A stretch of DNA of 64,000 nt from a phage. Both the position numbers and the translations under genes were made by a program. Each line of letters starts with the position of its first letter. The first letter of the stretch is position 1. Below are positions 12,996 to 31,021 of this stretch, piece after piece. The notes under the pieces are model-generated. The model saw nothing but the letters and a program-made list of their open reading frames with translations. It made no database searches and had not been told where the DNA came from. Where the stretch lies: the NCBI GenBank assembly GCA_024875585.1, contig GCA_024875585.1_4107.1, one strand, 5' to 3'.

Positions 12996-13150
12996 GAAAT
13001 AAAAGGGATTGGACTATGGCAAAATGCGTAGGGGGGCTAAAGTGCGGGTAACTTAGCGGCTTCGATAAAGGGGTATTACGAATAAAATGTTATTGACTTT
13101 TTATATAAATCGTATAAAATATGATTGATAATAATTTTAAGGGAGTCCCT

Positions 13151-13348
13151 GTGCGTATTTTAACTCAAGCAGAACACCACGAAAGACTTATCAATAACAT
13201 GGCTATGATAATGTATAAGTCCCATGACCGTGGTATTGCCTATAAGCGTGAATTAGTACTGGAACTATTCATTGGAACTAACTTTCAGGAAAGGTATGTC
13301 AACGATTGGATTTGGTATTTAATTGAAGATATAACGAGTAAACTATGA
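13151..13348 (+). CDS. Family A small paralog (LGTNYQE-motif protein)
   Basis: motif FIGTNFQERYV; start set to GTG after SD AAGGGAG (track 13121) by alignment to paralogs. Confidence 0.55.
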   Translation: MRILTQAEHHERLINNMAMIMYKSHDRGIAYKRELVLELFIGTNFQERYVNDWIWYLIEDITSKL

Positions 13349-13539
13349 TCATTTTAAATAAAGAAGAATATCAAGAACTGTTACGTAAAAACTTTGTAAA
13401 GATTTATAATACAGACACACACGTAGAACGAATGGAGTTATACCTTTTGATTACATTGGGAACTAACTATCAGGAAAGATGGGTGATTCAATATATGGAT
13501 ACATTGAAAAATAAAATATTGTCCACGAGGAAACAATGA
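13345..13539 (+). CDS. Family A small paralog
   Basis: LGTNYQERWV; ATGA overlap. Confidence 0.65.
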   Translation: MIILNKEEYQELLRKNFVKIYNTDTHVERMELYLLITLGTNYQERWVIQYMDTLKNKILSTRKQ

Positions 13540-13745
13540 AAACTATAACACGAACCCAATCATACGGACTTATCTTGAAATACATGGACTTAATGGTGGA
13601 TATCAGCAAAGACCTGCCTAAAACTGCAATTGAAGTTGCAAGAGCAGAGATCCGCATGTTGGCTGTACTGAACACAAACCATCAGGAAGAGTATGTTGAC
13701 GATTGGATTCGATTTTTAATAGAAGATATTAAGAGTAAACTATGA
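13536..13745 (+). CDS. Family A small paralog
   Basis: LNTNHQEEYV; ATGA overlap. Confidence 0.65.
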   Translation: MKTITRTQSYGLILKYMDLMVDISKDLPKTAIEVARAEIRMLAVLNTNHQEEYVDDWIRFLIEDIKSKL

Positions 13746-13954
13746 TTATATTAACACCTGAAGAATATAAGAAACGTTTTAATTCTGTCCAGACTGAAAT
13801 ATTACTTATATACCTTTCAAATGCAGATCTTAACTTATCAAGGGTAATGGAGAAGGATTTACTTATGGGTGCATTTTTGGATACAGACTTTCAGGAGTAT
13901 TATGTAGGGGAATACTTTATTGCACTTCAGAACCACATTAAGAGTAAACTATGA
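13742..13954 (+). CDS. Family A small paralog
   Basis: FLDTDFQEYYV; ATGA overlap. Confidence 0.65.
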   Translation: MIILTPEEYKKRFNSVQTEILLIYLSNADLNLSRVMEKDLLMGAFLDTDFQEYYVGEYFIALQNHIKSKL

Positions 13955-14166
13955 TTATTCTAGAAAAATCATATCAATATACTGAACGCATCGCTGCCAG
14001 ACAACTTGAAATCCTCATAATATACGAAGAGACTTCTGATTTAAACTTAGCCGAGGTATTGGAAAATGAAATACTTTTGGGTGCATTCTTGGGAACAGAC
14101 TATCAGGAGTATTATGAGGAAAAGTATTTGTCATCTCTTGAGAAATACGTCAGGAGCAAACTATGA
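13951..14166 (+). CDS. Family A small paralog
   Basis: FLGTDYQEYYE; ATGA overlap. Confidence 0.65.
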   Translation: MIILEKSYQYTERIAARQLEILIIYEETSDLNLAEVLENEILLGAFLGTDYQEYYEEKYLSSLEKYVRSKL

Positions 14167-14390
14167 AACATTTAAGTAATATAGAGAAGAATAAAATTAT
14201 CATTGCTGTAATAAACAAATATTTTACACTTCCACAAAAAGAATGTTTATCTATAAGGGAACACAGGATAAACACCACCGAGATTCGCATGTTGGCTGTA
14301 CTGGGGACTAACTTCCAAGAAGGCTATGTTCATGAGCACATCGTTGCACTCACTAATTACATAATGGACAAATGTAATGAACATCATTAA
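14163..14390 (+). CDS. Family A small paralog
   Basis: LGTNFQEGYV; ATGA overlap. Confidence 0.65.
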   Translation: MKHLSNIEKNKIIIAVINKYFTLPQKECLSIREHRINTTEIRMLAVLGTNFQEGYVHEHIVALTNYIMDKCNEHH

Positions 14391-14601
14391 TAACTTTGAA
14401 TACGAGGCCCGTGCTAAGAGTGCCAGAAAAAAAGAGAACACCATTTACTTCACTATGATGTACTTACAATGGACTGAAATTGAAGAAAAGGTTGCTGAAG
14501 TATGGATGTTGGAATTCATGGGGACGCAGTATCAGAATAGGTTTGCGGGTGAGTATATCAATGTTCTTATGAAACAAATAGAAAGGAAGGAAAAGAACTA
14601 A
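14377..14601 (+). CDS. Family A small paralog
   Basis: MGTQYQNRFA. Confidence 0.6.
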   Translation: MNIINNFEYEARAKSARKKENTIYFTMMYLQWTEIEEKVAEVWMLEFMGTQYQNRFAGEYINVLMKQIERKEKN

Positions 14602-14690
14602 TGGAGGGATGCTGTACTTTATTGGAACTTTTATATATTCATGAACACATAGTTGCCCTCACAAATCTAATAAAGGATAAATGTAAATGA
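14601..14690 (+). pseudogene. internally deleted Family A remnant (29-codon mini-ORF)
   Basis: MEGCCTLLELLYIHEHIVALTNLIKDKCK matches N-terminal bit plus C-terminal helix of the 14163 member; keeps stop/start overlaps on both sides. Confidence 0.5.
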
Positions 14691-14944
14691 AACACTTGAC
14701 TGATGATGAACATGAAACTATAATTCGTAAACTAACCCCCATCACAAGGATAGTCTACGGTGATCCCAGCCTCACATGGAACCAAATGCGAGCTAAAGTT
14801 AATGAGCTATGGTTGCTGTACTTTATGGGGACTCAATATCAAGATAAGTTTTGCACAGAATATATCGAACAATTAACGAATGTTATACAGGATAAACTAA
14901 ATGAACGAATTGTGGAAAAATATGAAAACTTTATCAAGCATTGA
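14687..14944 (+). CDS. Family A small paralog
   Basis: MGTQYQDKFC. Confidence 0.6.
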   Translation: MKHLTDDEHETIIRKLTPITRIVYGDPSLTWNQMRAKVNELWLLYFMGTQYQDKFCTEYIEQLTNVIQDKLNERIVEKYENFIKH

Positions 14945-15173
14945 GTATCAGACTGCCCTCTTCTCTCTTCTAAACACCCTCCGCACGAACAATAAACTTT
15001 ATAATTCCCGTGAAGCTGATATTGTCAACGCTGATGTATATCTTAATAAATTTATAGGGACTAACTATCAAGAACTGTTTGTTTTACGATATATCTCTGC
15101 ACTAAGAAACGAAATATCAGATAAAACCCGCCAAGCCAGAAGAGAATGGAAGAGACAATGCAACAAAGACTAA
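14901..15173 (+). CDS. Family A small paralog
   Basis: FIGTNYQELFV; start uncertain (overlaps previous ORF). Confidence 0.55.
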   Translation: MNELWKNMKTLSSIEYQTALFSLLNTLRTNNKLYNSREADIVNADVYLNKFIGTNYQELFVLRYISALRNEISDKTRQARREWKRQCNKD

Positions 15174-15409
15174 ATCACAAAATGTATTGTAAACTATTAC
15201 AGAATCTAGGACAAAAACACTATGATACAGTATCTGAAATATTACCCTATGATATCATGCGTTTAATTCATAGTGAGGCAGAGATGCTTGTACTGATGAC
15301 CGGTACTGATAAAACAGCAATCACCAGATCGATAGAGCAATATATTGATGCACACTGTCAATGTATTAGAACTGAGATATGGAGGCGAGTAAATGAAAGT
15401 ACTGAATGA
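15146..15409 (+). CDS. Family A small paralog (divergent)
   Basis: degenerate motif MTGTDKTAIT; start uncertain. Confidence 0.5.
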   Translation: MEETMQQRLNHKMYCKLLQNLGQKHYDTVSEILPYDIMRLIHSEAEMLVLMTGTDKTAITRSIEQYIDAHCQCIRTEIWRRVNESTE

Positions 15410-15608
15410 GTATCAGTATCATTGGAGGTTACAAACTATAAGAGGGAAAGTTGTTAGTATTTCTTTAGATAAGTCTATTGCACAAGAGGACAAATGTGTT
15501 ATAATAGCTGAAATGAAGTTGGGTGTATTTGTAGGAACAAACTATCAAAACATCTACACTGACGTATTATTAAGTGCCTTACGCAACAAGGTGTTATCCA
15601 GAGAATGA
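15393..15608 (+). CDS. Family A small paralog
   Basis: FVGTNYQNIYT. Confidence 0.6.
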   Translation: MKVLNEYQYHWRLQTIRGKVVSISLDKSIAQEDKCVIIAEMKLGVFVGTNYQNIYTDVLLSALRNKVLSRE

Positions 15609-15823
15609 GAAAATTAATAGGTTACGAATATGTTAAGCTTCTGAAAACCTGTAGTATTAGCAGGGTAAAGATTCAATCTGATAAGAGTATTCCTGTTGAA
15701 CTAAAGTACGCAATGATGGCTGAACTTTATGTAGGTGCACTATTGGGGACAAACTATCAACAAATGTATGTAGACCTATGGGTTGACGCACTACTGAAAG
15801 AGGTCCAAAGTAAATGCAAATGA
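15605..15823 (+). CDS. Family A small paralog
   Basis: LLGTNYQQMYV; ATGA overlap. Confidence 0.65.
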   Translation: MRKLIGYEYVKLLKTCSISRVKIQSDKSIPVELKYAMMAELYVGALLGTNYQQMYVDLWVDALLKEVQSKCK

Positions 15824-16035
15824 TTCATTTATCTTACTATGAATATCAAAAACGTTTAAATGCATCAAGGGATATAAGGATTAAAATCTACAATAACAAA
15901 AGATTGAAATCTGAAGCCAAAAAAATCAAAATGATAGAAGCTGAATTATGCAACTTCCTTGGGACGAACTATCAGGATGATAAGGTAACAAACTATCTTA
16001 GAGAACTAATGATTAGTATCAAGAGTAAATGTTAG
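15814..16035 (+). CDS. Family A small paralog
   Basis: FLGTNYQDDKV. Confidence 0.6.
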   Translation: MQMIHLSYYEYQKRLNASRDIRIKIYNNKRLKSEAKKIKMIEAELCNFLGTNYQDDKVTNYLRELMISIKSKC

Positions 16036-16039
16036 GCAG

Positions 16040-16297
16040 ATGTACATGAAAATGATTAAATTATCTCAAGCAAAATATAAAGAACGCCTGGTGAAAATTG
16101 CACCTAGACTTAATGAAATCCATCACGGAGAAGTCATTAAACACGGAAATAAGATGATTATGAAACTTGAGTTAAAGGTGGGTGCATTCATAGGAACAAA
16201 CTATCAGGAGTATTATGTAGATGAATACATAATCGCACTTAAGAGATACATTGGAAGAAAACTATATCTACAAACTAAAGAATTGTATTGCAAATAA
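16040..16297 (+). CDS. Family A small paralog
   Basis: FIGTNYQEYYV. Confidence 0.6.
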   Translation: MYMKMIKLSQAKYKERLVKIAPRLNEIHHGEVIKHGNKMIMKLELKVGAFIGTNYQEYYVDEYIIALKRYIGRKLYLQTKELYCK

Positions 16298-16578
16298 ATG
16301 CAAGGATAATGAATATGAAAATGATCAATTTAAGTAAAGATGAATATACCGAGCGTATGACAAAAATTACGCACAAACGTAATACAATCTATCACAACCC
16401 AGAAATTCAACACAGTAAGAAAATGATTATGATGCGTGAGTTAAAGATGGGTGTATTCTTAGGAACAAACTATCAAGATACAGAAGTAAATCGCTTAATC
16501 GCGGAGTTACTACTGGAAATCAGAGGTAAGCTGTACTTTCATCAAATGACCCAACCACTGAGGTGTACTAAGAAATGA
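16288..16578 (+). CDS. Family A small paralog
   Basis: FLGTNYQDTEV; start among several nearby ATGs. Confidence 0.55.
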   Translation: MQINARIMNMKMINLSKDEYTERMTKITHKRNTIYHNPEIQHSKKMIMMRELKMGVFLGTNYQDTEVNRLIAELLLEIRGKLYFHQMTQPLRCTKK

Positions 16579-16790
16579 TCAACATCACATTGCAAGAAAG
16601 ATTCATCCGAATCAACTATGCAATTACCAAATTAGATGCTACTATAGGATTCCAAAGTCTACCGTTCCAAACAAGAATGATATTAGAGTGCGAAGCTAAA
16701 TTGGGTGTACTGTTAGGAACGCAACACCAACAACGATATGTGGAAATCTGGATTGATCTTTTAACCCAAAATGTACATGAGAAAATGTAA
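16575..16790 (+). CDS. Family A small paralog
   Basis: LLGTQHQQRYV; ATGA overlap. Confidence 0.65.
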   Translation: MINITLQERFIRINYAITKLDATIGFQSLPFQTRMILECEAKLGVLLGTQHQQRYVEIWIDLLTQNVHEKM

Positions 16791-17027
16791 ATGAAAAATG
16801 AAATGATATACTTAACGAATGAAGAGTTTCAAGAGAAGATGTTAAAAATCTATGATAATACTCTTGAGTACGTTCCAAATCAATCAATATATGAAGTGTC
16901 TGCGAATGTATTATTTCAGAAGCTACCATACGTTCTTGGAACGGATAAACAAGAATTTATGGTCAAAAATATGATTGAACATCTTATGATGAGTATTAAG
17001 GAAAAAGTGAATGCAAAAGAAAAATGA
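16791..17027 (+). CDS. Family A small paralog
   Basis: VLGTDKQEFMV. Confidence 0.6.
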   Translation: MKNEMIYLTNEEFQEKMLKIYDNTLEYVPNQSIYEVSANVLFQKLPYVLGTDKQEFMVKNMIEHLMMSIKEKVNAKEK

Positions 17028-17274
17028 AATGATATACTTAACACCTGCTGAGTTAACAGAAAGACTAGTTAAATCCAGAAGATATACAAATCAACTTCCT
17101 CACAACCCAAATCAAACCCCAGCGGAAAGGAGTGCAGAAGTTTTATTCCAATCACTACCATACCTTCTTGGAACTAATAGACAAGAGTATCATATCGAAC
17201 GTATAATTAAATATCTTAAAATTACTATTAAGGAAAAAGTAAATGCTCAAGAATTTAAAAATCCTAACAGTTAA
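17011..17274 (+). CDS. Family A small paralog
   Basis: LLGTNRQEYHI; near-duplicate N-terminus of the 16791 member. Confidence 0.6.
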   Translation: MQKKNEMIYLTPAELTERLVKSRRYTNQLPHNPNQTPAERSAEVLFQSLPYLLGTNRQEYHIERIIKYLKITIKEKVNAQEFKNPNS

Positions 17275-17485
17275 TGAATATCATAAGATTGTAATGAAAA
17301 CTAATAGTGCAATTTCTAAAAAATCAAACCCAAAGTACATACTGGAACACACATTTGAAGAACGTCAATTAGCTTTAGTTGAAGCAAAACTTCTTGCACT
17401 ATTAGGAACAAACTATCAGGAAGAATACATCAGAAAACTAATATACCTTTTAACTAAACACATCAGGAAAAGAAAAAAAGCATGA
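17243..17485 (+). CDS. Family A small paralog
   Basis: LLGTNYQEEYI. Confidence 0.6.
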   Translation: MLKNLKILTVNEYHKIVMKTNSAISKKSNPKYILEHTFEERQLALVEAKLLALLGTNYQEEYIRKLIYLLTKHIRKRKKA

Positions 17486-17712
17486 AGCACTTGACAGATG
17501 ATGAACATGGGCTTATAGTAATGGATGTAATCAACATCGAATACAAAAAGTTGATACGCTATCGTTGTTATGAAGATAAGCAACTAGTTCTAGCAGAACA
17601 GAAGTTGTTTCGACTCTTAAACACAAACTTCCAAGCACAATACGAAGAATCGTATATGTACCTTTTGGCGAGGAAAGCAAAAAGAGATTATGAAAATTTT
17701 AAGCAAAGGTGA
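17482..17712 (+). CDS. Family A small paralog
   Basis: LLNTNFQAQYE; N-terminus MKHLTDDEH shared with 14687 member. Confidence 0.6.
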   Translation: MKHLTDDEHGLIVMDVINIEYKKLIRYRCYEDKQLVLAEQKLFRLLNTNFQAQYEESYMYLLARKAKRDYENFKQR

Positions 17713-17911
17713 TTCAGTAATATTACTTATAGAGAGTTCAAATAAATTCTTAAACATAACACTGTCTGATATAGATGAAGATGATAAAGAAGTACTGAGA
17801 GCAGATTTAAGAGTACTGTTACATCTCGGAACAAACCTACAAGAAGAATATGTAGAGTACTACATTGATGAACTTAAAGAATCAGTACTGAGAAGATGCA
17901 AATGCGAATGA
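17690..17911 (+). CDS. Family A small paralog
   Basis: HLGTNLQEEYV. Confidence 0.6.
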   Translation: MKILSKGDSVILLIESSNKFLNITLSDIDEDDKEVLRADLRVLLHLGTNLQEEYVEYYIDELKESVLRRCKCE

Positions 17912-18123
17912 TTACCGACGAAGAATACCTAACAATTATAAATGGATTGTTTTTGAAGTTGTTTGTTATTAACACATCAGATATACCAGATATGGATAAA
18001 ATTATTAAGAGAAATGAAATCTATGTTCTAGCTACCCTGGGAACTAACTATCAAGAATGCAATATTAATGATTATATTAATACACTTAAAGGAGCGATTG
18101 AACTAAAATGCCAAAACCACTAG
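17896..18123 (+). CDS. Family A small paralog
   Basis: TLGTNYQECNI. Confidence 0.6.
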   Translation: MQMRMITDEEYLTIINGLFLKLFVINTSDIPDMDKIIKRNEIYVLATLGTNYQECNINDYINTLKGAIELKCQNH

Positions 18124-18323
18124 GAACAGCAGAATACATTGAACTCATGGGATTACACTTCTCATCCTTTCAGAAACTTATGCGAGAATCAAAGAATGAT
18201 TTAGAATATACCATCAGAGGTTCAGATTTAAGAATGCTTCTCACCCTAGACACAGATTCCCAAGAGAGATTTGTCAATGAGCATATTAGAGCACTTTTAA
18301 TGGAAATTAAAAGTAAACTATGA
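18108..18323 (+). CDS. Family A small paralog
   Basis: TLDTDSQERFV. Confidence 0.6.
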   Translation: MPKPLGTAEYIELMGLHFSSFQKLMRESKNDLEYTIRGSDLRMLLTLDTDSQERFVNEHIRALLMEIKSKL

Positions 18324-18535
18324 AGGTAATATCAAACCAAGAGTACTTGGCACTATTCAGGAAGAATAATCACAAATATATGGCACTTGATTCAAGAACT
18401 GATATAGGGGAACTTGAAAAAAATCTTTTGCGTTCAGAGATGATAGTACTGACACTCTTAGGAACACAACATCAAGAGAGAACTGTTGATTCATATATTG
18501 AGATTCTTAAGAAGCTTATACAGGAAAAACTATGA
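18320..18535 (+). CDS. Family A small paralog
   Basis: LLGTQHQERTV; ATGA overlap. Confidence 0.65.
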   Translation: MKVISNQEYLALFRKNNHKYMALDSRTDIGELEKNLLRSEMIVLTLLGTQHQERTVDSYIEILKKLIQEKL

Positions 18536-18762
18536 GAATCATAACACAAACAGACATATTTAAGTTAGCAAGGGAACATACATCTGAAATTGATGCTATA
18601 GTATCAAAAAGTTACAATGACCCTTATACACAAGATGTGCACTACAATGAATTATGGGTGTATATACTTTTAGGTACAAATTATCAAGAGCAAGCAGTAC
18701 AGAAGTATTTGGCAGCTTTAAGTACTGCTACTGCTAATAGTATAGGTATTAAAAAATGCTAG
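18532..18762 (+). CDS. Family A small paralog
   Basis: LLGTNYQEQAV; ATGA overlap. Confidence 0.65.
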   Translation: MRIITQTDIFKLAREHTSEIDAIVSKSYNDPYTQDVHYNELWVYILLGTNYQEQAVQKYLAALSTATANSIGIKKC

Positions 18763-18992
18763 TACTGACAGAACTAGAAATGTATCATAGATTTAATAAG
18801 TACTATCATTTACTTAAGCCTATACAGAGGATTAAATGTCCATTTGAAGAGAAACAGGTATTAATTTATGAGCATAAGTTATTTGTATCATTAGGTACGA
18901 ATGAACAAGAGTATTATTTGAAGTTGTACTTAATTACTTTAATTGAATTGATTAATCACAAAACACAGAAAGCTAAGAAATCTAAAAAATGA
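18756..18992 (+). CDS. Family A small paralog
   Basis: SLGTNEQEYYL. Confidence 0.6.
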   Translation: MLVLTELEMYHRFNKYYHLLKPIQRIKCPFEEKQVLIYEHKLFVSLGTNEQEYYLKLYLITLIELINHKTQKAKKSKK

Positions 18993-25818: not shown

Positions 25819-26367
25819 ATGAGTTTATTAGATACATTAGAAAAAGACCGAAGTGCAATTAAACGATTAAAAAAGCAAATTCAAAAGATTGTATACAACG
25901 TTGATAAGTTTGAGGTTCCTGGGAGAGTAGGTGATATTTCCCATACTGAGATCAAATCCCTTAAGTCAGATTTGTTGGTTAAAAATAAAAATGAGTTGAT
26001 TTTAGTTTTGAGTTCAGATATGATGGGGGTAAGATATGGTTTTAATTCAGTATCAGTGCATCCTAAGAGTGAAGGGATATATCTATCACAGGGTTTCAAT
26101 AGCAACGAGCAGAAGTGTTTTTACGATGCTGTACATGAACCTTTGAAGTTTACGAGAAGTGAAGCTCAAGCGTTATTAGAGCTATCAGACGAGAGTTTGT
26201 TTCAGTACAGTACAATGTACGACAATGACAAGCTTCGTTGTATGTACGCAGTGAAGCATTATGCACATGAGTTCTCTGGATTTGAATACCTTTTAGTTAG
26301 AACCAATACAATGTATCTTGATATGTTAGAAGAATACATCGATAAAGTTGTTAATGAGTATCACTAA
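25819..26367 (+). CDS. Family B paralog
   Basis: ESLFQYSTMYD. Confidence 0.6.
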   Translation: MSLLDTLEKDRSAIKRLKKQIQKIVYNVDKFEVPGRVGDISHTEIKSLKSDLLVKNKNELILVLSSDMMGVRYGFNSVSVHPKSEGIYLSQGFNSNEQKCFYDAVHEPLKFTRSEAQALLELSDESLFQYSTMYDNDKLRCMYAVKHYAHEFSGFEYLLVRTNTMYLDMLEEYIDKVVNEYH

Positions 26368-26528
26368 TGAAAGAGTTATTTGAAGATCAGTTCAATACCT
26401 ATGTGGATAATATTCTTTATTCCAATCGTGCCAGTCAACGAGGAAATCGTGCTTACAATATTGATTACCTATTAGTGGTACTGAGTTCACAGTACACACA
26501 CGCTGTACAGAGGATGTATTATGAATAG
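26367..26528 (+). CDS. hypothetical small protein (53 aa)
   Basis: TAATG-coupled ORF below cutoff. Confidence 0.35.
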   Translation: MKELFEDQFNTYVDNILYSNRASQRGNRAYNIDYLLVVLSSQYTHAVQRMYYE

Positions 26529-26724
26529 TTATCACGATATTGCAAAGGAGAAGTTGGAGTGTAGTTTAGATTACGGTTTAAATAATTTTCTTACATGCAC
26601 AATGTACAGGGATGAAGATTATGAACAATCCGTAATTTCGTTGCATAGATATTTCGAAATAATTTACGCAAGATATCTTAGAAGGTTAAACGGGATAGGG
26701 GATTGGAATTATGATTACGTTTGA
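26521..26724 (+). CDS. hypothetical protein (67 aa)
   Basis: ORF. Confidence 0.45.
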   Translation: MNSYHDIAKEKLECSLDYGLNNFLTCTMYRDEDYEQSVISLHRYFEIIYARYLRRLNGIGDWNYDYV

Positions 26725-26965
26725 AGAACCAGAAACAATGAGTCCATATACGATGAAAGGTTTTGAATTCATGATGGATTCGATTTTGAAGAATTCGTGT
26801 TTAGTACACAATCCTGGATGTGCTACAGTGAGGGAATATCAGGACAATGCATTGCATCGTGTAATGAATATGTACAGGAATACGAGCCGTAAGCTTTGTG
26901 CGATTAAAAGGATTAAAGAAATCAAGGCTTCTAAGATGAATAAAATCAATCCGTGTGATTTTTGA
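26711..26965 (+). CDS. hypothetical protein (84 aa)
   Basis: ORF. Confidence 0.45.
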   Translation: MITFEEPETMSPYTMKGFEFMMDSILKNSCLVHNPGCATVREYQDNALHRVMNMYRNTSRKLCAIKRIKEIKASKMNKINPCDF

Positions 26966-27001
26966 AATCTTCGTATTCATATATCATAAGGTTTAATAAA
27001 A

Positions 27002-27730
27002 ATGAAATATAAAGAATTTTGTATAAAAACATGGATGTACACTGGTGAATTGCTTACGTGCTGTAATTTGTACAAGCGTGATGTAAACTTCACAAAGGAC
27101 AAAGTTATCAAGTATGAAAATTCTCAATTTTATTTGATGGATTTTAGTACTGGGTTTCATGGTAAATCAACCGAGATGCTGGATTATACATTAATGGATG
27201 AGGCGGCACTATTTCAAGAATCATTAGTATTTGATAAGAAGTACATCTGTACATTAGAAGAGATGATTGAAATTCAGAATAAAATTAAATGTGTTCACAG
27301 GGAATGTATTGATAAATGGTGTAAAACGGGTGAAACTGATTTTAGTAATCATTTTAATCTAGGAGAAAGAGTGATGGAATTTGATTTTTTAATATCAGTG
27401 CATACATTCAAGAATACACATCAGTACTTTTGTAATTTAAACAAAGGTGATTTAATGCACAGTGCGAATGAGTATATTCATTTTATGGATGGTAAATTCA
27501 CATTCATTGATTACAGTTCATTACAATATCCACATCAAGATATGCCGGACTATACAATAATGAATGAGGCTGAACTATTTCAAGCTTCATTAGTATTTGA
27601 CAAGAAGTACATCTGTACATTTGAAGAAGTAATTACTATACAAAATGAAATGAAGGAGTATGCATCTTTGAATAAACCCAATGAAGGTATTAATCAAGAA
27701 TACAAATTCAATATAGAGATTCCAAAATGA
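27002..27730 (+). CDS. Family B paralog with internal tandem duplication (two motif modules)
   Basis: MDEAALFQESLVFDKKYICTLEE and MNEAELFQASLVFDKKYICTFEE in one ORF. Confidence 0.6.
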   Translation: MKYKEFCIKTWMYTGELLTCCNLYKRDVNFTKDKVIKYENSQFYLMDFSTGFHGKSTEMLDYTLMDEAALFQESLVFDKKYICTLEEMIEIQNKIKCVHRECIDKWCKTGETDFSNHFNLGERVMEFDFLISVHTFKNTHQYFCNLNKGDLMHSANEYIHFMDGKFTFIDYSSLQYPHQDMPDYTIMNEAELFQASLVFDKKYICTFEEVITIQNEMKEYASLNKPNEGINQEYKFNIEIPK

Positions 27731-28086
27731 CATATGATTACTCTATGTACTATTATAAGTTACCTAAAGGATGGGACTTGTGCTGTAATCTTATTAAGGG
27801 AGACTCGGAACATGAGTTGAATTTATATATGCACTACAAAGATTCTTGTTTTAAATTTATTCATGTATCACATGATGACTATGACTATGAATCTGAGAGT
27901 CTTATAGATTATACAGTACTGGACGATGGCGAACTATTTCAGGAAGCATTAGTGTTTGATAAGAATAAGTACTCCTGTACATTTGAAGAAATGGTTTCTT
28001 TGCAAACTGAAATGAAGAGATTTGAAAAAGAAAACGTATTTAATCCATCCCCATCAAGAACGAATAATTATTATTTCAATATATGA
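27727..28086 (+). CDS. Family B paralog
   Basis: GELFQEALVFDKN; ATGA overlap. Confidence 0.6.
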   Translation: MTYDYSMYYYKLPKGWDLCCNLIKGDSEHELNLYMHYKDSCFKFIHVSHDDYDYESESLIDYTVLDDGELFQEALVFDKNKYSCTFEEMVSLQTEMKRFEKENVFNPSPSRTNNYYFNI

Positions 28087-28095
28087 GATTATAAA

Positions 28096-28578
28096 ATGAC
28101 ATTACAGAGTTCATTGGAAAAAGCAAAGAAGATCCATGAGTACATGAATATGGCAAAAGAAGGTTCAGTTTACGGTGTTTTCAAAGACACAAGTACTCAA
28201 TATTTTGTGCCGGATAACCTCCTTTATAATGACTACTCAGATACAGAAACGTGCGTACTGGATACCGACCCTAAAGATTATGAATGTTTCATTGATATGC
28301 ATTATGAGTACATGGTCTATATTAATGATGCAGATATTACCATCTACAGTACTGACTGCAATTCCGATGATATTATAATTCCTAGTGAAGTTCTGAATGG
28401 CCCGTGGGATAGTGAAGAGTATTACTTCCAACAAAGTACTGTATACAATGAAGAAGTACTTGATGTTATTATAATTATGTGGTACTTTAAAAATATTGGT
28501 TCTGATAACTTCTATTTCGATTACAGATACGTAAAGAAAGCTATAGATAACGATATTAATAAACCACACGGGGGTTGA
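28096..28578 (+). CDS. Family B paralog, subfamily B1
   Basis: EYYFQQSTVYNEE...IIMWYFKNI; N-terminus MTLQSSLEKAKKIHEY. Confidence 0.65.
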   Translation: MTLQSSLEKAKKIHEYMNMAKEGSVYGVFKDTSTQYFVPDNLLYNDYSDTETCVLDTDPKDYECFIDMHYEYMVYINDADITIYSTDCNSDDIIIPSEVLNGPWDSEEYYFQQSTVYNEEVLDVIIIMWYFKNIGSDNFYFDYRYVKKAIDNDINKPHGG

Positions 28579-28579
28579 A

Positions 28580-29050
28580 ATGAGTTTAGAAAGAGCATTA
28601 GAGATTGCGAAGTTAATTGATTTATGCAGCAAAGAAATTGTATCAAATTGTCTCAATGGATATCTATTCAAGGAAGGTAAATCATATTGTCGAATGAGAT
28701 ACGATGACAGTAGTGAGTATATTCACATGTATGAAGAAGACCTTGATGATTCCGAAATAACACTGAATGGGTGTGATGTTAATCTGGAAGATAATTACAT
28801 TTACTTCAGTCGTGGTGCTGATATTTTAATACAAGAAACATCAATTCAACATGTGAATCCAGATGTATATCTTCCATATTCAGTACTGGATAATGACTGG
28901 GGAAGTGAAGAGGTTTACTTTCAGCATAATACTATCTACGATGAAGATGTGCTTGACAAGCTTGTCATTCTGTGGTACTTTAAGAACACTGATACTCCCA
29001 ACTTCTATATGGATTTGGATCTACTACGAGTTATAAAAGAGGATATATGA
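28580..29050 (+). CDS. Family B paralog, subfamily B1
   Basis: EVYFQHNTIYDED...ILWYFKNT. Confidence 0.65.
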   Translation: MSLERALEIAKLIDLCSKEIVSNCLNGYLFKEGKSYCRMRYDDSSEYIHMYEEDLDDSEITLNGCDVNLEDNYIYFSRGADILIQETSIQHVNPDVYLPYSVLDNDWGSEEVYFQHNTIYDEDVLDKLVILWYFKNTDTPNFYMDLDLLRVIKEDI

Positions 29051-29490
29051 GTTTAGCAAGTGCACTTAAACTGGCACACAAAATACATCACTTCCACGAT
29101 AACATAAAAAGTGGGTTCTATGGTGATAAAGTAAGTGCATTGGGTAATGAGTATTATCTATCAGGTATAAAGACATACTCTGATGATATTTTACTTATGG
29201 GACATGATAAAGACAATACTATACAGTACTCTTCATGTAGTCAATATACTAGTTTTATGGTATATATTCCAGGTACTAAGATTACGTTTGACACATCAAA
29301 TTCACCTGTTGACTTCGGGGTACTTGATGGCCCGTGGGGTACTGAAGAGTATTACTTCCAACAGAGTCTTATTTTCAACCAAGAAATTCTTGATTCCTTG
29401 GTTGTTTTGTGGTACTTTAAGGAATTGAATTTTGAACCATTCTTTCTTGACTGGGGAGCATGTGAGTATTTAAGTACAGGGGATTTGTAA
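29047..29490 (+). CDS. Family B paralog, subfamily B1
   Basis: EYYFQQSLIFNQE...VLWYFKEL. Confidence 0.65.
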   Translation: MSLASALKLAHKIHHFHDNIKSGFYGDKVSALGNEYYLSGIKTYSDDILLMGHDKDNTIQYSSCSQYTSFMVYIPGTKITFDTSNSPVDFGVLDGPWGTEEYYFQQSLIFNQEILDSLVVLWYFKELNFEPFFLDWGACEYLSTGDL

Positions 29491-29978
29491 TGTCGTTACA
29501 AAGTGCATTAAAAGAAGCAAAGAAAATCCATGAGTACATGATTATGGTACAAGAAGGTTCAGTCCCAGGTGTGTATAAAACATCTGATACTGAATTTTTT
29601 GTAAAAGACCGTGACGATTATGATGAGTCAGAGATATGTGCAGAAACGTTAGTACTGCACACTGATACTGGTGATAGTGATAACTGTGAATATCATATGT
29701 ACAATCAGTACATTAGTTATTGCCGTAATGAAGATATTACCATCTACAACACAGATATTGATGCTGATGACACTATCATTCCGTATTCAGTACTGGAAGG
29801 TCCGTGGGATAGTGAAGGGTATTACTTTCAGAATAGTACTATCTACAATGAAGAAGAACTGGATGTTATTGTGATTATGTGGTACTTTAAAAGTATTGAC
29901 TCCAGTAGTTTCTATTTTGATTATGAATATGTAGAGAATACAGTAGGAGAAGGTAATGTCATTACAAAGTGCTCTTGA
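29490..29978 (+). CDS. Family B paralog, subfamily B1
   Basis: GYYFQNSTIYNEE...IMWYFKSI. Confidence 0.65.
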   Translation: MSLQSALKEAKKIHEYMIMVQEGSVPGVYKTSDTEFFVKDRDDYDESEICAETLVLHTDTGDSDNCEYHMYNQYISYCRNEDITIYNTDIDADDTIIPYSVLEGPWDSEGYYFQNSTIYNEEELDVIVIMWYFKSIDSSSFYFDYEYVENTVGEGNVITKCS

Positions 29979-30402
29979 AAAAGCAAAAGAAATACATGGA
30001 TACTTTGAAGATATAAAGGCAGGAAAGTTCAAAGAAGTATACAAAGCCGAGAACGGTAACTACTACAAAGATGAAATATATAATAATTCCGTTGGTGTAA
30101 GGGTTATTCTTGAGTTGAATTCCAATAGTCCTGTGTCGTTTTCTGAATACAATAGAGATGCAGAATTCATTAGTTATGTTGAAAATGGTAGCATTCGTTT
30201 TATTAATAGACAAAAACCATTAATTTTGAATTATGAAGTTCTGGATGGTCAGTGGGATAATGAAGAGTATTACTTCCAAAACAGTACTGTATACGACGAT
30301 GAAGTACTTGAAGCATTAGTTATTATGTGGTACTTCAAGAGTATTAACTGTCCTCGATTTTATTTGGATTTCGAAGAACTTGGTAAAGATCCAGAGGTAT
30401 AG
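29956..30402 (+). CDS. Family B paralog, subfamily B1
   Basis: EYYFQNSTVYDDE...IMWYFKSI. Confidence 0.65.
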   Translation: MSLQSALEKAKEIHGYFEDIKAGKFKEVYKAENGNYYKDEIYNNSVGVRVILELNSNSPVSFSEYNRDAEFISYVENGSIRFINRQKPLILNYEVLDGQWDNEEYYFQNSTVYDDEVLEALVIMWYFKSINCPRFYLDFEELGKDPEV

Positions 30403-30403
30403 A

Positions 30404-30718
30404 ATGAAAAACTTATTCAGTGTTCAGTACGTTCCAGGTGAAATTAGTTTATTGTATCTCTTTGACCATGATAATTCATTATTACTAGTAGTAAAGAAAT
30501 GTCAAGCTAGTTCGTTTGTTGAATACATTCACGATAATGAATATATACCTGATTTTTTAGAGTGCGATTATTACGATGATCATGAATCATTTATTTTTCA
30601 GGAATCGCTAGTATGGGACAAATCGATTAACTTCTTTACGTTAATTGAATTACAAAAGCAAGTGAAGTATCATTGGGATTATTTAATTACACAGGATTAC
30701 ATTGAGATAGAAATATAA
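30404..30718 (+). CDS. Family B paralog
   Basis: SFIFQESLVWD; start moved to ATG after SD GAGGT (track 30380). Confidence 0.55.
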   Translation: MKNLFSVQYVPGEISLLYLFDHDNSLLLVVKKCQASSFVEYIHDNEYIPDFLECDYYDDHESFIFQESLVWDKSINFFTLIELQKQVKYHWDYLITQDYIEIEI

Positions 30719-30960
30719 TGACTAAAAATGAATTTGATTCACTTTGTACTGTTTATAATTCATTAACAGAAATACCTAACTTTATTAGTTATATTTCAGC
30801 TTTAAATCACATTATGCATAGTTTTGAACAATCGTTTGAAGAGAAATATGCTGGAAGAAAAGTTCTATGTCATATGCCAATGTACTTAGGAGATGGTGAG
30901 CCTTACACTACAAGTACTACATGTGAAATAAAAAATATAATATATTATTGGGTACTATAG
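30718..30960 (+). CDS. hypothetical protein (80 aa)
   Basis: ATGA-type overlap; no family motif. Confidence 0.45.
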   Translation: MTKNEFDSLCTVYNSLTEIPNFISYISALNHIMHSFEQSFEEKYAGRKVLCHMPMYLGDGEPYTTSTTCEIKNIIYYWVL

Positions 30961-31021
30961 AATTCACAGTATCCAATGGCGGTAGTTATATGTACTTTAG
31001 AGATGGAGTGGTTGAATTATT

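Follow-up and report, generated by a model that had tools for sequence, protein, structure and literature searches.

A two-module gene in the tandem paralog array of an Asteriusvirus jumbo phage, very probably a recent in-frame fusion of two neighbouring genes

How does a single gene come to contain two copies of a module within a tandem array of related genes? The question is raised by an ORF at 27002-27730 (+ strand) of a stretch of phage DNA of 64 kb, part of a genome of about 350 kb, which we will call the window. The ORF starts with ATG and codes for 242 amino acids plus a stop. An earlier note, made from the letters of the window, had described it as an ORF with two modules, and had proposed either a fusion of two array units by loss of a stop/start junction or an intragenic duplication. 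The ORF does exist, and the peptides quoted for its two halves, MDEAALFQESLVFDKKYICTLEEMIEIQNK in the first and MNEAELFQASLVFDKKYICTFEEVITIQNE in the second, are both present. Very probably it is a recent in-frame fusion of two old, diverged neighbouring members of an Asteriusvirus tandem paralog array.

The array and its modules

The window is DNA of an Asteriusvirus, a jumbo coliphage of the 121Q/PBECO4 type. All its sizeable ORFs are found in the + strand, tightly packed, with 30-38% G+C. A megablast search with positions 26000-31000 gives 36 jumbo-phage records from Escherichia and Salmonella, all of them in the 121Q/PBECO4 group. The best match is Escherichia phage UE-S1, with 96.1% identity over 5 kb, followed by 121Q, PBECO4 and others with 83-92%. 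A Logan contig from SRR21187690 is identical to the window over 6.7 kb. The comparison with UE-S1 gives a mosaic, with 84-100% identity per 250 nt. Between 24000 and 30500, blocks with more than 99% identity to UE-S1 (locus L016) alternate with blocks of 84-94% every few hundred bases, a pattern which suggests that Asteriusviruses circulating together recombine often within the array.

The array, at 18989-58665 (+ strand), contains 43 ORFs of 100-284 aa with the core [ST]-E-E-x-[YL]-F-Q-x-S-[LT]-[VIL]. We will refer to them as the FQ-core family, which has at least 43 tandem copies in the window, the fused gene being one locus of the array. The F and the Q are invariant, both in the 43 window paralogs and in an alignment of 48 sequences. 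Two full motifs are found in only one of the 43 motif-bearing ORFs, the fused one. The family occupies most of 40 kb, a large share of the left arm of the Asteriusvirus genome. Its short (100-137 aa) and long (147-181 aa) subfamilies are homologous: hhalign gives a probability of 91.6% (E=8e-7) for 61 columns with the core at their centre. Five near-tandem copies of the PHROG 9317 type, with 147-162 aa, are found at 28096-30402.

Module A (aa 1-124; 27002-27373, + strand) is the ortholog of the separate genes AGC34875.1 of PBECO4, gp365 of 121Q and gp447c of phAPEC6. Module B (aa 125-242; 27374-27730, + strand) corresponds in the same way to AGC34874.1, gp368 and gp444c of these phages, and begins at a retained former start codon, the ATG at 27374-27376. 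BLASTP gives 42% identity between both modules over 92 residues (E=9e-23). The following gene (27727-28086, + strand), whose start codon forms an ATGA with the stop of the fused ORF, is a separate gene of 119 aa in the same subfamily, module C. It had been described as a third copy, and this is confirmed: it shows 39% identity to module B over its full length (E=7e-26) and matches PHROG 15629 once (E=1.6e-59). This PHROG, a profile of 121 positions with no assigned function, gives two stretches of similarity to the 242-aa protein (E=1.3e-102), of which aa 125-239 against profile positions 1-119 is the better. We should also note that phAPEC6 gp447c, the module A ortholog (QDF14070.1; L024 2097-2474), is annotated as 'amidohydrolase 3'; Pfam and NCBIfam searches give no support to an enzymatic assignment for the FQ-core family.

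The core forms a direct DNA repeat with three copies, 82-86% identical, at a spacing of 366 and 359 nt. Copy 1 (27173-27288, + strand) contains the module A core, DYTLMDEAALFQESLVFDKKYICTLEEMIEIQNK; copy 2 (27539-27654, + strand), in module B, is 82% identical to it over 116 nt; copy 3 (27907-28017, + strand) is in module C. The central motif reads ALFQESLVF in module A and ELFQASLVF in module B. Identity among A, B and C is a mosaic: 80-93%, both in amino acids and in nucleotides, for a core of about 35 codons, and 10-35% in amino acids for the flanks. The identical core residues are mostly encoded by identical codons. Each repeat had been thought to end in the core, which is in fact found at about residues 60-95 of a module of some 120 aa, with a long helix and then a closing beta-strand after it.

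The junction and the distribution of the fused allele

In ten relatives which we have examined (PBECO4, 121Q, SHEFM2K, EC.P1, E9.1, UB, SP27, Ecwhy_1, fEgEco12 and vB_Ec-M-J), A and B are annotated as separate genes which share one base in a TGATG stop/start overlap. Their junction is ...AATCTAGG[G/A]GAAG[A/T]GTGATGGAATTT..., with the TGA as stop codon of the upstream gene and the overlapping ATG as start codon of the downstream one. Because of this overlap, the downstream gene is one base back from the upstream frame. Upstream of the junction, the TGA frame is open for 127-191 codons and the ATG frame is closed within 2-8 codons. The split orthologs in PBECO4, 121Q and phAPEC6 have the same modules as the fused gene, in the same order and with the same junction sequence around the TGATG overlap, but they are separate genes, of 112-125 aa (A) and 118 aa (B), and lack one A.

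The window junction, CTAGGAGAAAGAGTGATGG, is one A longer than the CTAGGAGAAGAGTGATGG found in UB and SP27. AA has become AAA at 27366-27368, in a purine-rich Shine-Dalgarno tract, 4-6 nt before the former stop. The whole junction, GGAGAAAGAGTGATG (27362-27376, + strand), thus contains the Shine-Dalgarno sequence GGAG (27362-27365), the run of three A, the former TGA (27372-27374), which is out of frame, and the former ATG (27374-27376). Since one extra base takes the TGA out of frame, reading continues into the downstream ATG: the frame upstream of ATG 27374 is open for 128 codons. Module A ends with NLGERV, followed by MEFDF, in the fused allele, and with NLGEE and a stop in the split alleles. 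In L017 (SRR32251462), a close relative in the split state, module B is identical and the junction is GGAGAATAGTGATGG. These aligned alleles show the genetic mechanism to be, at the level of the DNA, a +1 insertion of A next to the TGATG overlap. What characterizes a fusion by frameshift is found here: split neighbours in the relatives, a frame-restoring indel with remnants of the stop and the start, and the same state in independent data.

The fused junction is present in 12 of the sequences fetched, the window and 11 other loci, which come from no fewer than 10 separate samples or assemblies. They include UE-S1, GCA_019326865.1, and Logan/ENA contigs from SRR15217871, SRR21187690, ERR14116099, SRR10499431, ERR13936577, SRR31254118, SRR31305037 and ERR10686700. 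In UE-S1, the hypothetical protein UES1_321 (UTS53689.1) is 100% identical to that of the window and has the same neighbourhood, with 99.7% DNA identity over 26950-28100; there is no difference at the fused locus, while the genome around it consists of blocks with only 84-99% identity. Neither the UE-S1 record nor its paper remarks on the fusion. The exact 242-aa protein is also recorded in the "E. coli" assembly GCA_019326865.1, in a contig of 347,726 bp, and in two Logan assemblies. Judged from these independent occurrences, the fused allele is an inherited variant, not an error.

Jumbo phages thus appear under the name of Escherichia coli. Near-complete genomes are found within assemblies labelled Escherichia coli, for example L014 (ABBLLY010000004.1, 347,726 bp, in GCA_019326865.1), and jumbo-phage proteins are named '[Escherichia coli]' (EHU8781148.1, EJR1979228.1). 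This suggests carrier-state infection or contamination of the sequenced isolates.

Four variants of the 242-aa protein are present in the databases, on 3, 10, 4 and 2 contigs; three of them have the conservative replacements K32R, H53R and V124M in different combinations. Five DNA alleles are represented among the fused sequences; of their polymorphic sites, 5 are synonymous and 2 are non-synonymous but conservative, which gives a pN/pS of about 0.08 (binomial p 0.002, or 0.04 with a transitions-only expectation). The indication of constraint on the fused ORF is suggestive rather than strong, because there are only 7 sites, all of them in module A, and recombination with split alleles may have contributed some. 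The fused gene is found in a block at least 99.6% identical between the window and UE-S1, from about 26750 to 28250 (about 1.5 kb), flanked by blocks of 86-94%. Such a near-identical block amid diverged backgrounds means that the allele has been kept or moved across backgrounds. It is a minority allele: among the 37 GenBank phage records which have the locus, the fusion is found in one. When 1.84 billion representative proteins were searched exhaustively with a profile, 92 family clusters came out, all of 50-160 aa, with no two-module protein among them. The rarity of the fused allele is equally compatible with a tolerated accident and with an advantage.

The fused protein and the alternative explanations

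Module C was modelled by AlphaFold2 with the 48-sequence alignment (pLDDT 86.6, pTM 0.83). Five antiparallel strands (5-12, 15-21, 33-38, 41-47 and 54-59) are followed in the model by a helix (67-76), then by a short and a long one (the latter at 86-102), and by a closing strand (113-117). Helix 67-76 is the ELFQEALVF core, in the middle of the domain, in a block with pLDDT 95-98. F71, Q72 and Q93 are invariant residues. The [ST]-E-E prefix fits an N-capping box, so the family core may be read as a structural helix, predicted to pack on the sheet. The fold of the module has no convincing match in PDB or Pfam. The acidic p32 / gC1qBP / MAM33 fold was considered, and it gives no significant structural superposition.

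For the 242-aa protein (pLDDT 78.7, pTM 0.52) the same order of elements is predicted twice, and only residues 123-125 have a pLDDT under 50. In this model the fused protein is two beads on a short low-confidence linker, with no confident mutual packing. With all the sets, MAFFT piled the single-module homologs onto one of the halves, and the alignment used covered almost only module A; the second half and the arrangement of the domains are therefore weakly supported. The earlier claim that units can be joined in one polypeptide holds for the ORF and for the predicted fold.

A simple sequence of events accounts for the fused gene. The ancestral state is two translationally coupled genes with a TGATG overlap. 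Insertion of a single A at 27366-27368 has shifted module A into the frame of module B, so that the TGA is skipped. Ribosomes would then translate ...NLGERV-MEFDF... without a break, giving a product of about 28 kDa with two domains; each module would fold independently, with a short flexible linker between them. GGAG and ATG are intact, with a spacing of 8 nt, so internal initiation probably still yields module B on its own too. In that case the fusion would be nearly neutral, which would explain its persistence without spread.

A different view of this persistence is that the fusion has been favoured by selection, because the modules act together, for example as a heterodimer, and their linkage fixes a 1:1 ratio or keeps them close. 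We consider this unlikely. It is true that the fusion has been maintained on several backgrounds and in several allelic forms, which differ mostly by synonymous changes, and that the neighbours are already translationally coupled in the split genomes, which suits co-expression. However, its frequency among sequenced phages is low, the search of 1.84 billion representatives gives no two-module protein elsewhere in the family, and the low pTM of the fused model goes with the lack of confident inter-domain packing.

Less likely still is that the fusion is a first step of decay, which disables module A (or B) in a gene heading to loss. The array is certainly in flux. In 121Q, SHEFM2K and phAPEC6, an insert of about 590 bp is found between A and B (L003 1871-2463, 121Q gp366-gp367; L004 974-1503, SHEFM2K; L024 2474-3003, phAPEC6). 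It contains a truncated module, B', of 53-75 aa, whose first 27 residues or so are B-like (gp366, with 74 aa, in 121Q; M2K_0104, with 53 aa, in SHEFM2K), together with one more member of the family, which is of the PHROG 13866 type. The junction sequence TGATGGAATTTGATTTTTTAATATCAGT is present twice in these insert-bearing genomes. There is also a metagenome-derived protein of 109 aa (P0056) whose N-terminal part corresponds to A and its C-terminal part to B, with the switch within an identical LFQESLVFDKKYICT core; it looks like the pattern expected of unequal recombination at the core. Truncated copies, an inserted member and a chimera might be what decay looks like, but the fused gene itself has an intact frame of 242 codons in all 12 fused sequences, its replacements are only the three conservative ones, and both halves are predicted to fold.

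A sequencing or assembly artefact, where a homopolymer miscall or a collapsed repeat gives an apparent fusion, is very improbable. The difference is indeed one base in a purine run, and -1 variants of the same tract are found in TH47 (L025 1089-1583) and CMSTMSU (L011 around 1169), with CTAGGAAAGAGTGATGG and CTAGGGAAGAGTGATGG respectively. The two records carry the flag UNVERIFIED, and in CMSTMSU many ORFs are broken; in TH47, module A is four codons longer and overlaps B by 14 nt. These variants may be sequencing errors or a sign that the tract is prone to indels. But the run in the window has only 3 nt, the +1 state recurs in alleles which differ elsewhere in the ORF, and the 366-nt spacing of the modules and their flanks are collinear with the relatives, so nothing has been collapsed. 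The frameshift or collapsed repeat at the junction against which the earlier note had warned is thus rejected, as independent assemblies carry the same fused ORF.

As for the two origins proposed at the outset, the extra A and the ten split relatives speak for fusion by loss of the stop/start junction, and the chance of an intragenic duplication in the window lineage is negligible in spite of the two modules in one ORF and their similar DNA core, because each half has its own closer ortholog (about 75-99%) as a separate gene in PBECO4, 121Q and others, and the halves, only 42% identical as aligned, share no more than 10-35% of their residues outside the core, with the former stop and start still visible between them.

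The FQ-core family and the meaning of the fusion

The fused gene, read as a recent fusion of two neighbours, belongs to a family with several common features. Its proteins are acidic, with a median pI of 4.8 and a net charge down to -25. In phAPEC6, where the local array has 18 genes (gp435c-gp452c), none of their products is named in the published text on the virion proteome determined by mass spectrometry. In fEgEco12, whose ends have been mapped, the locus is at about 37 kb, about 16 kb inside the left terminal repeat of 21 kb. A scan of 26300-28700 gives no terminators, and no more promoter sites than a shuffled sequence. Acidity, absence from the published virion text, the position relative to the terminal repeat and the lack of promoter or terminator signals above chance lead us to infer that the array is a polycistronic, probably early, non-structural block. 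We have found in the literature neither transcriptome or expression data for any Asteriusvirus nor a proteome of a phage with the fused allele.

Single proteins and the 48-sequence alignment give nothing above threshold in Pfam, NCBIfam, PADLOC or the PDB sequences. Two possible functions have been discarded. The core E-E-x-Y-F-Q-x-S resembles a site for proteases of the TEV NIa or 3C type, but it is predicted with high confidence to be a helix within the domain, and P1' lacks the required S or G: after the core Q comes a variable residue (E, Y, L, Q, N, M, among others), and the conserved S is one position further. Module A also contains K-C-V-H-R-E-C-I-D-K-W-C (C-x-H-x2-C-x4-C; 27287-27325, aa 96-108), which suggested a zinc knuckle or a RING-variant domain (PF12906); the match has 14.7 bits against a Pfam cutoff of 21.6 (E=0.03). 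P0002 and P0015 have Phe instead of the first Cys, which makes a conserved zinc site unlikely.

In the literature we have found a single sentence on the family, in Hua et al. 2017 (PMC5646251), which mentions '30 very similar genes'. The modules are full-length members of PHROG 15629 and their tandem layout matches this remark; all other members of the PHROG that we have found have a single module, unlike the fused ORF. Hua et al. give no coordinates, so they could mean instead a second array, at 13.1-19.0 kb. This is a different tandem family (13121-18992), directly upstream of the FQ-core array, with about 27 consecutive genes in the + strand, of 69-96 aa, and a common C-terminal motif, L-G-T-N-Y-Q-E-x-Y-V...I..K.

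Most likely, the FQ-core proteins are non-structural, early-expressed, acidic binding modules, in which the conserved N-capped FQ helix would be the structural core and the variable sheet and tail would provide specificity. A more ambitious proposal can be made, to which we give only a small chance: the modules would be a structurally new, hyper-expanded family of early, acidic, non-virion proteins directed against the host or its defences, evolving like an accordion by duplication, core-mediated recombination, truncation and fusion, and the fused allele would be a selected single-chain pair. If so, neighbouring modules would act together on one target.

Neither the fusion nor the array is without precedent. 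Frameshift or stop loss at overlapping stop/start junctions is known to fuse coupled genes in bacteria and phages, and the event described here is of the same kind: a one-base indel beside a TGATG or ATGA overlap merges two frames. Tandem expansions are likewise known in large viruses, such as the multigene families of poxviruses and ASFV, the so-called 'gene accordions'. The FQ-core array resembles them in having dozens of diverged tandem paralogs on one strand near the genome end, with changes in copy number, chimeras and truncations between close strains, but fold and sequence are unrelated. In Bacillus phage G, about 35 copies of a zinc ribbon form a lineage-specific tandem expansion (Iyer et al. 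2021, PMC7824862).

In summary, the fusion is an ordinary event, and the FQ-core family is the more interesting object. Coupled phage genes with an overlapping stop and start are one indel away from a multi-domain protein, and both states coexist in nature. The fused and split alleles are near-isogenic natural variants, which offer a handle on the role of a very large orphan family.
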